Source: a virus. Taken from it: a stretch of DNA of 28,290 bases. Made by a program: the position numbers. The stretch is from UHGV virus genome UHGV-0284664, one strand, 5' to 3'. How positions within the stretch are numbered: the first letter of the stretch is position 1; every line of letters starts with the position of its first letter. This document shows, piece by piece, positions 6,001 to 12,000 of this stretch.

Positions 6001-9000
6001 CGTGGTGAACTGGAAAAGCTCCACCACCAGCTGGTGGATACGTATACCTCACTGAACCGGCAGTATGCGGAGCTGCTGAGTGAATATAAACATCTGCGGC
6101 GGTATTTTGGCGTGACGGTGCAGGTGCCGTATACCGATGTGTGGACGCATAAACCGGTGCAGTTCTATCCCGGGAAACATCCGTGCGAAAAACCGGCAGA
6201 AATGCTGCAGCAGATAATCAGCGCAAGTAGCCGTCCTGGTGATCTGGTTGCGGATTTTTTCATGGGGTCGGGTTCAACGGTAAAAGCGGCGATGGCACTG
6301 GGGCGTCGTGCGATTGGTGTTGAGCTGGAGACCGGACGTTTTGAGCAGACAGTCAGGGAAGTTCAGGATTTAATCGTTTGAAACGGATGAGATTGCAGAA
6401 TTAATTACGCACCATTATTATTCTGCTCCCGGCCCTTTAGCTCAGTGGTGAGAGCGAGCGACTCATAATCGCCAGGTCGCTGGTTCAAATCCAGCAAGGG
6501 CCACCATCACATACCGCCATTAGCTCATCAGGAAAGAGCGCCAGCCTTCGAAGCTGGTTGCGCGGAGTTCGGGTCCCCGAAGGCGGTCCATTATCTGTAT
6601 CCTGCGTTGTTAGCTCAGCCGGACAGAGCAATTGCCTTCTAAGCAATCGGTCACTGGTTCGAATCCAGTACAACGCGCCACACTTATTTTCCCTGGCTCG
6701 CTTTTGCGGGCTTTTTTTTAAATGTCTCACAATTCAGGCGGTTGACTGTTGTCTGGTTTGCGGGGAGTTTGTTAAAAGAAACTGGCATGGTGAATCCCCC
6801 TGTGCGGAGGGGCAATCAGCGAGTAGGTATATGGGATAATCGCGGATTCAGGTGCTGGTACTGAATTCACCGGGAGGCACCCGGCACCATGCAATGGCAC
6901 ATAGCGCCACTCTCCAGCCCCTCTCCGGAGGGGCTTTTCTGTGCCGGATACATCACAGTTTCTGGAACCTTAGGTACTACAGTATCAGTCAGGGTGCTAT
7001 ATTTTCAGATGTGATGAAAGCCTGTCAGCAGGCAGGGCGTATCGGAAATGACCCAGTAGAGAAAACGTTGACTCAGATACCGGTGCTGAGTTACCGGGAA
7101 ACCGGCATCACATGACCGCTATCCTTCCAGGCCCATCCGCTCCGGTGGGCCTTTTTACTGCAGAAAACAGGTTCCCCGTTAAATGCTATGTTGCTCACAA
7201 TTCAGTAAGTTGACAGTTGCCTGTCAGACTGGGCATTTGTTAAAAAAATTTCGCATGGTGAATCCCCCTGAGCGGAGGGGCGACTGGTGACGGTATAATC
7301 TCTGATTATCAAAACGAGAATGACGCGGGTTTAGTGGCACCGGGCTGAACTCACCGGGAGGCACCCGGCACCATGTGCATGATGATACAGATACGCGGCT
7401 TTAGCCCCTCTCCGGAGGGGTTTTCTTGTGGGCAAAAAAAGCCCGCGCTGGGAGACGCGGGCGGCAAGGAATAAACAATAAAACGTGAAGTAATATTTCA
7501 GCTGGCGAATAATATCCGACAGTAATCACTCTGCGCAATAGCGCGGCCTTTTTCGTATTGCGGGCTGTTGTCTCTCTTCTGCCATTGTCCTGTAACTTCC
7601 GGACTTCAGCCCGCTCCTCATTTTACTCACAATATTATCCCGGCCGGGAGGATTCATGGCATTTAAACACTATGATGTTGTCAGGGCGGCGTCGCCGTCA
7701 GATCTTGCGGAAAAGCTGACACATAAACTGAAAGAGGGCTGGCAGCCGTTTGGTAGTCCGGTGGCCATAACCCCTTATACCCTGATGCAGGCGATTGCAG
7801 CAGAAGGTGATGTGGTCGTCAGTGGTGCAACTGAGCCGGAGTGGTACTACGTCATCGTACTGGCCGGGCAGTCCAATGCCATGGCTTACGGTGAAGGGCT
7901 TCCGCTTCCGGATTCATACGATGCGCCCCATCCGCGCATTAAGCAACTGGCCCGTCGTAACACAGTGACTCCCGGTGGTGAAGTATGCGTATTTAACGAC
8001 ATCATTCCTGCTGACCATTGTCTGCATGATGTTCAGGATATGAGTACGATTAACCATCCCCGGGCTGACCTGAGCAAAGGGCAGTACGGCTGTGTCGGAC
8101 AGGGCTTACATATTGCCAAAAAACTGCTTCCGTATATCCCTAATAATGCGGGGATCCTGCTGGTACCATGCTGTCGTGGTGGTTCGGCATTCACCCAGGG
8201 CGCGGAGGGGACATTCAGTGCGGACACGGGGGCCAGCCAGGATTCGGCACGCTGGGGTGTGGGTAAACCATTATATCAGGATCTGCTTTTCCGCACGAAG
8301 GCAGCATTGCAGAAAAACCCGAAAAACGTTTTGCTGGCGATATGCTGGATGCAGGGGGAATTCGATATGACGAATGCCAGTTACGCCCAGCAGCCAGCAG
8401 CATTTCTTGCAATGGTACAGCAGTTCCGTGCTGACCTTGCCGGGCTGGCGGCGCAGTGCCATGGCGGCAGTGCTGCAGTTGTACCGTGGATTTGTGGCGA
8501 CACGACGTATTACTGGAAAAACACATACGGCACACAGTATGACTCCGTCTACGGCGCGTACAAAAACAGGGAGAGCGACAACGTTTTCTTTGTGCCGTTC
8601 ATGACCGACGGTAACGGCAACAACACGCCCACCAACTTACCGGCAGAAGACCCGGATATTGCTGATGCAGGTTATTACGGCGCGCAATCCCGTAGTAATG
8701 GTAATTGGGTATCGTCAAATCGTCCGACACATTTCAGTTCATGGGCGCGCAGGGGCATTATTTCGGATCGCCTGGCAACCGCTATTCTGAACGCAGTTGG
8801 TCGAACCAGCGCCTTCATCAGCGGTACCGCACCGGAGATTAAACCCTCGCCCGGCGGCGACACGCCATCGGGGCCGTCTGATGGTGACACATCCGTTCGT
8901 ACAGTCTCCCTGCTGCCGACAGCCGGAGAGGCTGCTGCGCAGGGCTGGACCATCACCGGCGGCAGTGTTGCGCTGGAAGATGGTGTGTTTAAGGTTACCA

Positions 9001-12000
9001 AGCAGAGCAATAAAACCTGGTCCCTGATGCATCCGGTGGATGACGCAGTCTCCCTGCTGACACGGGGTGGCAGACTGAGCTGTAAGTTTCGACTGTCAGG
9101 CGCACTGACCAACAACCAGTTCGGTCTGGGAATTTATCTGTATACCGATGTAGCGTTACCTGACGTCGTGGCGATGACCGGGACTGGTAACCCGTTCCTG
9201 ATGTCGTTCTTCACCCAGACCACAGACGGCAAACTGAATCTGATGCATCACAGGAAAGCAGGAAACACAAAGTTGGGCGAGTTCGGGAATTACAGTAACG
9301 ACTGGCAGACGCTGGAGCTGGTGTTCACCGCCGGCAGTGCCACGGTTACTCCGAAACTGAATGGAGTGGCTGGCCCGGCATTCCAGGTCATAAAAGACAG
9401 TCTGACACTGGGGCTGAATGCGCTGACGCTGACGGATATTACCAAAAATGCAGCGTATGGCGTTGAGATAGAAAGTCTGGTGCTGGAGATAAATGCACCA
9501 GCATCATCATAAAAAGTGAGCCAGTCAAATGGAAGGTATCGTTAAACTCACCGGTAGTGTCAGTGGGTCGTCTGAGATGCCTGCATGAGTTATCAGAGCC
9601 ATCAGTACTTAACTGGTGGCTTTTTTTATTGTTGTCAGCTTCCGGATAACGGGAGATGGGGTATGTACCAGATGGAAAAAATCACAACAGGTGTGTCATA
9701 CACCACGTCAGCGGTGGGAACGGGCTACTGGTTCCTGCAGTTGCTGGACAGGGTTTCCCCGTCTCAGTGGGCGGCAATAGGCGTGCTGGGGAGTCTGCTG
9801 TTTGGGCTGCTGACATATCTGACTAACCTGTATTTCAAAATCAGAGAGGACCGTCGTAAGGCGGCACGGGGAGAGTAATTCAATGACTCAAAACTATGAA
9901 CTGATTGTGAAAGGGATCCGCAATTTTGAGAATAAAGTTACGGTAACTTTAGCGTTACGGGACAAAAAACGCTTTGACGGTGAAATTTTTGACCTGGACA
10001 TCTCGCTGGACCGTGTTGAAGGTGCCGCGCTGGAGTTTTATGAGGCAGCAGCCAGAAGGAGCATCAGACAGGTCTTCCTGGATGTTGCTGCCGGGTTATG
10101 TGAAGGGGATGAGCAGTCGCCGGAAAAGCGCCCCGTAATTTTAGAGGCGCAGAATGTATGGATAACCTACAAAGGAAAGCTACCGGGAATAATTACTGGT
10201 TCTCTGAAGACTCCTCCGGAATCACAACCTTAAGTCACTGACCGGAACAGATAAACCTGTCCGTGGGCAGAAACCGATAAATCCTGATAAATATCCATGA
10301 ACACCAAAATCAAATACGGCCTGTCGGCTGCCGTTCTGGCGCTGATTGCCGCTGGTGCGCCTGCGCCTGACATTCTCGACCAGTTTCTGGATGAAAAGGA
10401 AGGTAACCACACCACGGCATACCGTGATGGCGCGGGTATCTGGACCATCTGCCGCGGTGCCATCCTGGTGGATGGCAAACCTGTCGTTCCGGGCATGAAG
10501 TTGTCGAAGGAAAAATGCGACCGGGTTAACGCCATTGAGCGTGATAAGGCGCTGGCATGGGTGGAGAAAAACATCAGAGTGCCATTGAGTGAACCCCAGA
10601 AAGCGGGGATCGCGTCATTCTGTCCGTACAACATTGGCCCCGGTAAGTGTTTTCCGTCGACGTTTTATAAACGAATTAATGCAGGTGATCGCAGGGGAGC
10701 GTGTGAGGCGATTCGCTGGTGGATTAAGGACGGTGGCAGGGACTGCCGTATTCGCTCAAATAACTGTTACGGTCAGGTATCCCGTCGTGACCAGGAGAGC
10801 GCGCTGGCGTGCTGGGGAATCGACAGATAAGCAGAATATTTTGCTAATAAATGACGTTGGTCAAGGCGGACGGATAACACGAAATCCTGCGAACTGGCAA
10901 AATGTAAGTGAATAAAAGTAAAAACCCCGTTTGTTGGCAGCAAGCGGGGTTTTGTTTTTATGGCAGTAAGCTATGGGAGGCTGCCTTGATTGATTTTAGC
11001 AAACTGATTAGGGAGTTGCGACTCATGATTAGTCAATTACCAAACTGGAAATTTTTGCTGGTCTGGAGCATCCCTTTTTTATGGGTAGTATCCCAGTTAA
11101 TTGTGGCAATTAAGGGGTAGCTATGTCAGACAAACTCATAACGCCGGCAAAGGTCCTGTGTGTGATTGTCGGTATTTCATTTTCACTAATGCTGGTTGCT
11201 CTTTTTCTGTCCCTCGCCTGGGTGATGTTGTCTTCGTCGGGGCTGCTGGGGTGACAGTGACTGATGACATCAGCAGAGCGCTGGCTTTTGCTATTAAGTG
11301 GGTGGCTGTTGGTATTGCTGTGTCTCCGATGCTGTATGGGCTGGCAAAACTGGTCATTGCGCTGAAATCGTGAACTTTAAAAAGATGAGTGCTGAACTTA
11401 TTCGGGCAATGGCATTTGCCATTCGTATTGTGGCCATTGCTGTTCTGGTCTGGGCAATCCGTTGGTGGTGATATGAACCGTGTTCTGTGTGTGGTGATTA
11501 TTGTCCTGCTGGTAGCCTGTGGTGTGCTTAGTCTGGGGCTGAATCATTACCGCGATAACGCCATCACCTACAAAGCGCAGCGCGATAAAAAAGTCAGTGA
11601 GCTGAAACTGGCGAATGCCACTATTACTGACATGCAGCAGCGCCAGCGAGATGTCGCTGCGCTTGATGCCAGATACACGAAGGAATTAGCCGATGCGAGA
11701 GCTGAAAATGAAACTCTGCGCGCTGATGTTGCCGCTGGTCGTAAGCGCCTGCGGGTCAACGCCACCTGCCCCGGTACCGTGCGTGAAGCCACCGGCACCT
11801 CCAGCGTGGATAATGCAACCGGCCCCCGACTGGCAGACACCGCTGAACGGGATTATTTCATCCTCAGAGAACGGTTGATGACAATGCAGAAGCAGTTGGA
11901 AGGGGCGCAGGAATATATCCGCACTCAGTGCACTAAGCTGGCTTTTTATTATCCGGAGGATACATGAAGAAATTACGGGTAACCGTAGAACCTTTTCAGG

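Follow-up and report, generated by a model that had tools for sequence, protein, structure and literature searches.

The closest described relatives of the esterase gene nanS-p in UHGV virus genome UHGV-0284664 (a 28,290-nucleotide stretch of DNA, read 5' to 3' on one strand and called the window throughout) come from other phages and from the Escherichia coli chromosome. NanS-p of phage 933W is the family's experimentally characterized and crystallized prototype; this protein (z1466/L0105) is identical to vb_24B_21/gp84 of phage phi24B. It has its three-domain architecture and genomic position in common with the 618-amino-acid window protein, but the two are 56% identical overall, with identity by segment of 85% (residues 1 to 34), 15% (residues 35 to 60), 71% (esterase), and 36% (C-terminal domain). 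The window protein has a first linker that is shorter by 14 residues and without SISSP, and its prophage carries a lambda-type siphovirus head module, whereas 933W and phi24B have that of a T=9 Traversvirus podovirus. NanS-p of the Shiga toxin 2 (Stx2)-converting phage 86 (orf3, AB255436) is closer to the window protein (83% identical overall), with the same RPTH form of the esterase and a C-terminal domain whose last 150 residues are ∼99% identical; the two also have 99.4% identical spacers before the holin gene S. Unlike the window, phage 86 combines this esterase with a phi24B-type DUF1737 domain and long linker, stx2AB upstream, and a 933W-type terminase. The protein of the Stx1a-converting phage Stx1_14040 (LC567819; yjhS, "9-O-acetyl-N-acetylneuraminic acid deacetylase") is the nearest named allele, 87% identical at the amino acid level and collinear throughout, and it resembles the window protein in its S-type DUF1737 loop (defined below), its RPTH block, and its position upstream of the holin gene. 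In Stx1_14040, however, nanS-p lies immediately 3' of stx1AB and ∼450 nt from the holin gene, whereas in the window two STnc100-family small RNA (sRNA) genes and no toxin precede it and the spacer is 150 nt. Chromosomal NanS (YjhS; PDB entry 3pt5, a solved construct of 337 residues) has a homologous catalytic domain; the window protein adds DUF1737 and a lectin-like domain to it and is prophage-borne (PMC10462455), its gene sitting between Q and the lysis genes, while NanS is a single-domain esterase encoded outside a prophage.

This copy of nanS-p is already known. The protein is 100% identical to RefSeq WP_032278306.1 ("SASA family carbohydrate esterase"), and its family has been characterized biochemically and structurally. 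Four complete E. coli chromosomes carry the gene at 100% identity, and the index of an assembly collection lists the exact protein in 228 blocks. Among complete E. coli genomes, 41% (2234/5426) have nanS-p-like sequence at a nucleotide identity of 80% or higher (median, 2 places per genome; maximum, 14). The window as a whole is absent from the complete RefSeq E. coli genomes, where coverage is at best 88% at 96% identity; thus, its mosaic combination was not located in that set.

Pfam recognized DUF1737 (residues 3 to 50), SASA (residues 66 to 262), and DUF6645 (residues 468 to 578) in the protein, all above curated cutoffs, and PHROG 143, a family with no assigned function, matched over the full length. 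NCBIfam returned no meaningful match and PADLOC no match for the protein; by the latter result, it is not a known defense protein. By sequence, two solved structures match the protein, one in its catalytic and the other in its C-terminal domain. NanS/YjhS of E. coli O157:H7 (3pt5) aligns with residues 59 to 379 (E = 1e-122), with 58% identity over 321 aligned columns as counted on the printed alignment, and a crystallized C-terminal domain annotated "NanS-p" (6yp6) aligns with residues 422 to 614 (E = 9e-31). Identical residues in the 3pt5 alignment include S73 (of GQSN), G175/G176 (of CCRGG, the block II glycine), Q233-G234-E235 (QGE), and H359. By SGNH convention, Ser73 is presumably the nucleophile, and His359 the presumed catalytic histidine. 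If the NanS numbering is, as we assume, Ser19/His301, the 3pt5 chain indices are offset from it by a constant 11. The RPTH variant of the last SGNH block is known from NanS-p of phage 86 (PMC10462455), and we confirmed it in the phage 86 locus. Four aromatic residues have been proposed as the sugar site within vb_24B_21's C-terminal domain (PMC10462455), and three of the four positions remain aromatic in the window protein (F489, Y494, and F519). All three domains are under purifying selection: the ratio of nonsynonymous to synonymous substitution rates (dN/dS), pooled over pairwise comparisons of 65 unique window-type alleles, comes to 0.20 (DUF1737), 0.18 (esterase), and 0.31 (C-terminal domain).

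These results bear out most of a preliminary description of the locus, made by reading the DNA alone, which had proposed a NanS-p-type sialate O-acetylesterase of 618 residues with a GQSN motif in its N-terminal half, a roughly 250-residue C-terminal extension (239 residues follow the part that aligns with chromosomal NanS), and a strong Shine-Dalgarno sequence, the last of which is also kept in 933W and an Stx1a phage. The check that it had suggested, a profile search for an unrelated SGNH hydrolase family, was negative: the 3pt5 match rules such a family out, and the protein falls with NanS. Its account of the architecture was sound for the SASA half and the extension but overlooked the 54-residue N-terminal DUF1737. 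The features of the locus are collected in the table below.

Table. Features of the nanS-p locus in the window, in order of position
Feature	Coordinates	Strand	Basis
3' part of ietS (subtilase, Peptidase_S8), cut by the window start	1-1811	+	Pfam/PADLOC
Late antiterminator Q, 273 aa	3936-4757	+	Pfam Antiterm PF03589, E = 9e-51
Candidate pR' (TTGATT, 16 nt, TG-n-TAAATT)	4763-4790	+	Read from sequence; below scan threshold
tR'-like terminator, ∼85 nt past the Q stop codon	4840-4862	+	Terminator scan
Second terminator, after a small open reading frame	5168-5185	+	Terminator scan
Type II DNA methyltransferase gene	5332-6381		Profile searches
Three tRNA genes (CAT, Arg-TCG, Arg-TCT), ileZ-argN-argO-type cluster	6431-6680	+	ARAGORN; Rfam
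STnc100-family sRNA gene, copy 1	6756-6946	+	Rfam RF02076, 136 bits
STnc100-family sRNA gene, copy 2	7224-7433	+	Rfam RF02076, 161 bits
Conserved 5' leader: small hairpin (7531-7546), then T-run	7531-7655	+	Terminator scan; comparison with 933W
Shine-Dalgarno sequence GGGAGGA	7646-7652	+	Sequence reading; 4 nt separate the GGAGG core from ATG
nanS-p coding sequence (618 codons and a stop)	7656-9512	+	ATG start; open reading frame listing
DUF1737 domain, residues 1-54, S-type loop ..SPVAITPYTLMQA..	7656-7817	+	Pfam PF08410, E = 4.7e-16
SASA/SGNH esterase domain, residues 63-380	7842-8795	+	Pfam PF03629, 48 bits vs cutoff 24.8
Block I motif GQSN, residues 71-74 (GGG CAG TCC AAT)	7866-7877	+	Sequence; aligns with GQSN of NanS 3pt5
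Codon of His359 in RPTH, last SGNH block (block IV in PMC10462455)	8730-8732	+	Aligns with histidine of 3pt5 RSSH
Pro/Ser/Gly-rich interdomain linker, residues 381-420	8796-8915	+	Alignment to phi24B/933W protein
C-terminal lectin-like jelly-roll domain DUF6645, residues 421-618	8916-9509	+	Pfam PF20350, E = 3.4e-19
Intrinsic-terminator hairpin and U-run between nanS-p and holin gene S	9595-9630	+	Terminator scan (9595-9623); fold, 12-bp stem
Holin gene S (P21 class II), which opens the lysis cassette	9663-9878	+	Pfam PF04971, E = 9e-33

In our judgment, the gene probably encodes a three-domain enzyme of the NanS-p family that is expressed late, is released by lysis, and benefits sibling lysogens. 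By homology, the SASA/SGNH core would strip O-acetyl groups from 9-O-acetylated sialic acids (5-N-acetyl-9-O-acetylneuraminic acid [Neu5,9Ac2] and sialic acids of mucin related to it), and the lectin-like jelly-roll domain presumably holds the enzyme on glycans. The gene would be transcribed in the Q-antiterminated late transcript from pR' (∼4.79 kb), which would have to pass several terminator-like hairpins on the way to nanS-p and another between it and the holin gene. Because the N-terminus is not signal-peptide-like, NanS-p made in induced cells would reach the gut lumen on holin-endolysin lysis, either free or attached to capsids, and surviving sibling lysogens could then catabolize the deacetylated N-acetylneuraminic acid. 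All tested nanS-p alleles of strains EDL933 and O104:H4 encode active esterases and allow growth on Neu5,9Ac2, and tested NanS-p proteins act on both free and mucin-bound O-acetyl sialic acids (review, PMC8065619).

Several points weigh against this account. Enzyme activity and growth benefit have been demonstrated for homologues only, from EDL933 and O104:H4. The last SGNH block reads RPTH here and RSSH or RASH in most alleles, the C-terminal domain is just 36% identical to the crystallized one, and the fourth sugar-site aromatic is a leucine (L585). What is said here of NanS structure and NanS-p enzymology draws on reviews and on general background. The consensus promoter scan described below leaves room for a weak or non-sigma-70 promoter. 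Finally, a benefit to the host may be secondary to a role in the virion. The "host-benefit metabolic gene" of the preliminary description is thus in line with what has been published for homologues, while its purely metabolic view calls for qualification, as the phi24B homologue is a capsid decoration protein in a 2026 preprint.

The natural substrate could instead be a bacterial O-acetylated surface polysaccharide (O-antigen or polysialic acid capsule), with the enzyme aiding adsorption rather than nutrition. This idea is left open in a review (PMC8065619); an enzyme displayed on the capsid would be well placed to meet cell surfaces, and the several subtypes of the C-terminal lectin-like domain would suit diversifying glycan targets. 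However, the catalytic domain shares 58% identity with NanS, whose substrate is Neu5,9Ac2, and the tested alleles act on sialic acids, as noted above. Hexon centers would also be poorer sites than tail fibers for receptor modification, and nothing speaks for such a substrate directly. We regard it as quite improbable.

A role in the virion deserves more weight. In phi24B, gp84 is an abundant virion protein. Its DUF1737 domain has been resolved as a hexamer occupying the central hexons of the T=9 capsid and subsequently undergoes proteolytic processing; SSP motifs have been proposed as autoprocessing sites, and the anchor loop of the domain, with its Tyr42 "tooth," reaches into the hexon pore (preprint 10.64898/2026.04.10.717836). 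NanS-p of the window might likewise be mainly a virion component, its DUF1737 hexamers docking on hexon centers, with unchanged enzymology that profits the phage rather than the lysogen. In the window protein, the constraint on DUF1737 given above (dN/dS of 0.20) is in keeping with such a role, as is the expected coexpression of nanS-p with the head genes in the late operon. Other features differ from phi24B. The capsid-contact half of DUF1737 is the segment that is 15% identical to phi24B, the Tyr42 loop is 3 residues shorter, and Y41, although nearby, does not align with Tyr42. SSP motifs are missing from both linkers (linker 1, AAEGDVVVSGATEPE; linker 2, IKPSPGGDTPSGPSDGD). Moreover, the head genes of the window are lambda-type (gpA, portal_2, S49, gpD, and gpE) rather than those of a T=9 Traversvirus, and the window has no 933W-type terminase.

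To set this domain in a wider context, we surveyed ∼170 nanS-p loci (L004 to L175). Three types of DUF1737 loop were distinguished: S (..SPVAITPYTLMQA.., as in the window), T (..SALISTAGYGAEFIQP.., as in phi24B and 933W), and U (..GPFSSYTDDGAALIQA..). When tabulated against the large terminase, S loops occurred with lambda gpA (n = 40), the HK97-type enzyme (n = 21), and a 670-residue terminase (M3; n = 2) but never with the 933W-type enzyme or with M4. T loops occurred with the 933W-type (n = 7), HK97-type (n = 1), and M4 (n = 1) enzymes and with neither lambda gpA nor M3, and all 7 U loops occurred with M3, none being found with the lambda, HK97-type, 933W-type, or M4 enzymes. Thus, a 933W-type terminase was present at 7/9 T-type loci and at 0/70 non-T loci. 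The loop type predicts the head module better than the other parts of the protein do: Fisher P values were 1e-8 for the DUF1737 loop, versus 0.006 and 0.10 for the esterase and C-terminal subtypes, though these values are indicative only, as the surveyed loci are not independent samples. The esterase and C-terminal subtypes are far more shuffled across head types, even though they lie nearer to the head genes. Besides the lambda, HK97-type, and 933W-type packaging modules, two others came to light downstream of nanS-p in the survey, one with a 670-residue large terminase and a 500-residue portal (L109, 15153 to 21429) and one with a 627-residue protein (L137, 8245 to 11259); neither was matched at ≥70% identity by a reference of those three types.

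NanS-p is a mosaic of three parts. Written in the order N-terminus, esterase, and C-terminus, the combinations found were S-S-S (n = 93), T-T-T (n = 39), S-T-T (n = 28), S-S-T (n = 5), T-S-S (n = 1), and T-S-T (n = 1). Phage 86 (L095, 1727 to 3622) is a natural chimera in which a phi24B-type DUF1737 and long linker are joined to a window-type esterase and C-terminus; the phage, a Traversvirus, has a 933W-type head module. Taken together, the survey results and phage 86 favor a capsid-related role of DUF1737.

One specific form of that role is that the S-type DUF1737 is a capsid-docking module for the heads of both lambda-type and HK97-type siphoviruses, and that subtypes S, T, and U have been selected to match heads. 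Against this, S-type sequence accompanies three or more different packaging modules and persists in headless remnants. An identical 62-residue S-type N-terminus is found with lambda-type heads at 24 loci and with HK97-type heads at 14 loci, and the S-type loop is also found with a third packaging module. The exact 618-residue protein is intact in two prophage remnants without head genes (L010 and L012) and in one without most of its lysis and head genes (L013). On balance, we hold the docking module to be a tentative proposal with the odds against it, and a NanS-p that serves mainly the virion to be similarly doubtful. We note that virion decoration and an enzyme that benefits kin are not mutually exclusive.

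The preliminary description placed nanS-p in the late operon, which agrees with our annotation (Q and the tRNA genes on one side, the holin gene on the other), and called it a moron. In the strict sense, this would be an autonomous unit with its own promoter and terminator, constitutively expressed in the uninduced lysogen. Such a unit is suggested by the terminator-like hairpins that bracket the gene, by its accessory nature relative to phage lambda, by the identical copies retained in degraded prophages, and by the growth of lysogens carrying homologues on Neu5,9Ac2 without deliberate induction (PMC8065619). Yet no sigma-70-like promoter was found on the plus strand between 5500 and 11500 by a consensus scan, which may miss weak or non-sigma-70 promoters, and the ∼100 nt that follow the last upstream hairpin up to the ATG (7547 to 7655) contain no convincing -35/-10 pair. 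Base composition is not distinct either: the GC content rises mildly across nanS-p (0.53 to 0.57, versus 0.47 to 0.52 in the flanks) and does not look foreign. At least seven terminator-like hairpins lie on the plus strand between pR' and the nanS-p ATG, and nanS-p of other alleles rises by 1 to 2.4 log with mitomycin C, alongside stx2a, as measured by quantitative PCR (PMC10462455). Given the missing promoter match, the hairpins after pR', the unremarkable GC content, and the published coinduction with stx2a, the most economical reading is that nanS-p is a Q-dependent late gene and not a strict moron, which we consider unlikely. On this reading, cells induced spontaneously would account for basal expression in cultures of lysogens.

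The bracketing hairpins themselves fit this late-gene reading, as both lie in conserved neighboring elements. Terminator-like sites are abundant in this region, with 17 between 5500 and 11500 versus 5.5 ± 1.9 in shuffled sequences. Upstream of nanS-p, the scan placed plus-strand hairpins at 7403 to 7422 and 7531 to 7546, the first of which is the terminator of STnc100 copy 2. The downstream hairpin directly precedes the holin ribosome site and matches >300 phage records, including ones that carry other genes between nanS-p and S; 933W, phage 86, and an Stx1a phage all keep it, with A-T replaced by G-C in a compensatory change. Terminators on both sides, as first described, are therefore present, but they appear to belong to the STnc100 sRNA gene and to the conserved element before the holin gene rather than to nanS-p. 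A 2026 preprint describes a similar arrangement, with PasD/STnc100 upstream and PasA/PasC downstream of a "sialic acid esterase," beside the holin-lysozyme operon. The window agrees with this layout by position; its 9513 to 9662 spacer, which matches only in position and in the conserved terminator, is a candidate PasA/PasC sRNA.

The leader of nanS-p is nearly identical to that of 933W despite 56% identity between the proteins. Near-identity spans the leader and the first 34 codons (7531 to 7757), with divergence thereafter, which points to recombination junctions inside nanS-p. Internal recombination would also account for 22 phage records whose best matches reach 95 to 99%, while the best full-length match is ∼87%. 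Between STnc100 copy 2 and the leader, a strong minus-strand intrinsic terminator (7462 to 7441, within 7434 to 7540) lies where the antisense sRNA AsxR sits in 933W. Neither AsxR nor AgvB was found by Rfam in 6680 to 7700 at E ≤ 1, and the region may hold an uncatalogued antisense sRNA variant.

The link to Stx proved weaker than a gene "retained on a toxin-less phage" would imply. The absence of toxin genes was correctly noted (neither stx1A nor stx2A has a match in the window), but nothing indicates that this prophage ever carried a toxin. Among sampled loci with at least 2.5 kb of upstream DNA (n = 79), only 3 contain stx, one of them being the 933W reference locus; set beside the 2234 genomes with nanS-p-like sequence, this makes the wording an overstatement. 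With no toxin genes in its stx slot, the prophage might also be a former Stx phage and NanS-p an inactive relic of it. The open reading frame is intact, however, with all conserved motif residues kept, dN/dS lies between 0.18 and 0.31, the identical protein is widespread, and 76/79 loci of window-type alleles are stx-less. The intact frame, the conserved motifs, and dN/dS rule out a pseudogene, and we give the relic virtually no credence.

The window represents the right-hand part of a lambdoid prophage. Its late region runs Q, methyltransferase, tRNAs, sRNAs, nanS-p, S, R, Rz, and Nu1/gpA, and the order around nanS-p (Q, tRNAs, nanS-p, and holin) matches that of 933W and phi24B. The candidate pR' was recognized by its likeness to what we take to be the lambda pR' sequence. 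DUF968 and RusA genes lie between ietS and Q. In related prophages, a complete IetA (AAA, 384 residues) and IetS (754 residues) pair stands directly upstream of DUF968-RusA-Q; in one of them (L005, 763 to 4156), PADLOC identified IetA at E = 9e-143 and IetS at E = 2e-299. By these profile matches, the pair is a predicted IetAS anti-phage defense system in the prophage nin region. Q itself gave two Antiterm hits and a DnaJ-type zinc-finger signal, and its length of 273 residues is that of the "untypable" Q of the Stx2a prophage of strain 00-3076 (PMC10462455).

The 933W annotation carries a matching ileZ-argN-argO cluster. The CAT-anticodon tRNA (6431 to 6506, plus strand) was called tRNA-Met by ARAGORN, while the identical gene of E. 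coli JKHS016 is annotated tRNA-Ile in RefSeq and its 933W counterpart is ileZ. Both STnc100 copies score well above the RF02076 gathering score of 47, and a degenerate third copy (30 bits) lies at 6985 to 7158; direct repeats of this region have a period of 468 to 487 nt. The order in 933W is tRNAs, stxAB, one STnc100, antisense AsxR, and nanS-p. Its single STnc100 is placed relative to nanS-p as copy 2 is in the window, where copy 1 occupies the stxAB slot. Downstream, the holin gene is followed by genes for a DUF1327 protein, lysozyme (10297 to 10830), and Rz. Next comes a head and tail module that is complete and of the lambda type (Nu1, gpA, portal_2, S49 protease, gpD, gpE, tail tube, and tape measure).

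As an annotation, the locus carries little weight, with its exact protein in RefSeq and its family characterized. It does correct the picture of nanS-p as stx-linked cargo, since the allele class of the window resides overwhelmingly in stx-less prophages. The picture of a moron is probably too simple as well, since nanS-p is one element, along with the sRNA gene, the terminator, and the holin gene, of a conserved module in a Q-dependent late operon. The link between DUF1737 subtype and head module bears on whether the virion-decoration role of phi24B extends to lambda-like siphoviruses. If it does, NanS-p would be a modular, capsid-displayed, mucus-modifying enzyme in most E. coli lambdoid prophages rather than a metabolic passenger, its esterase and lectin domains swapped freely and its DUF1737 subtype matched to the head module.

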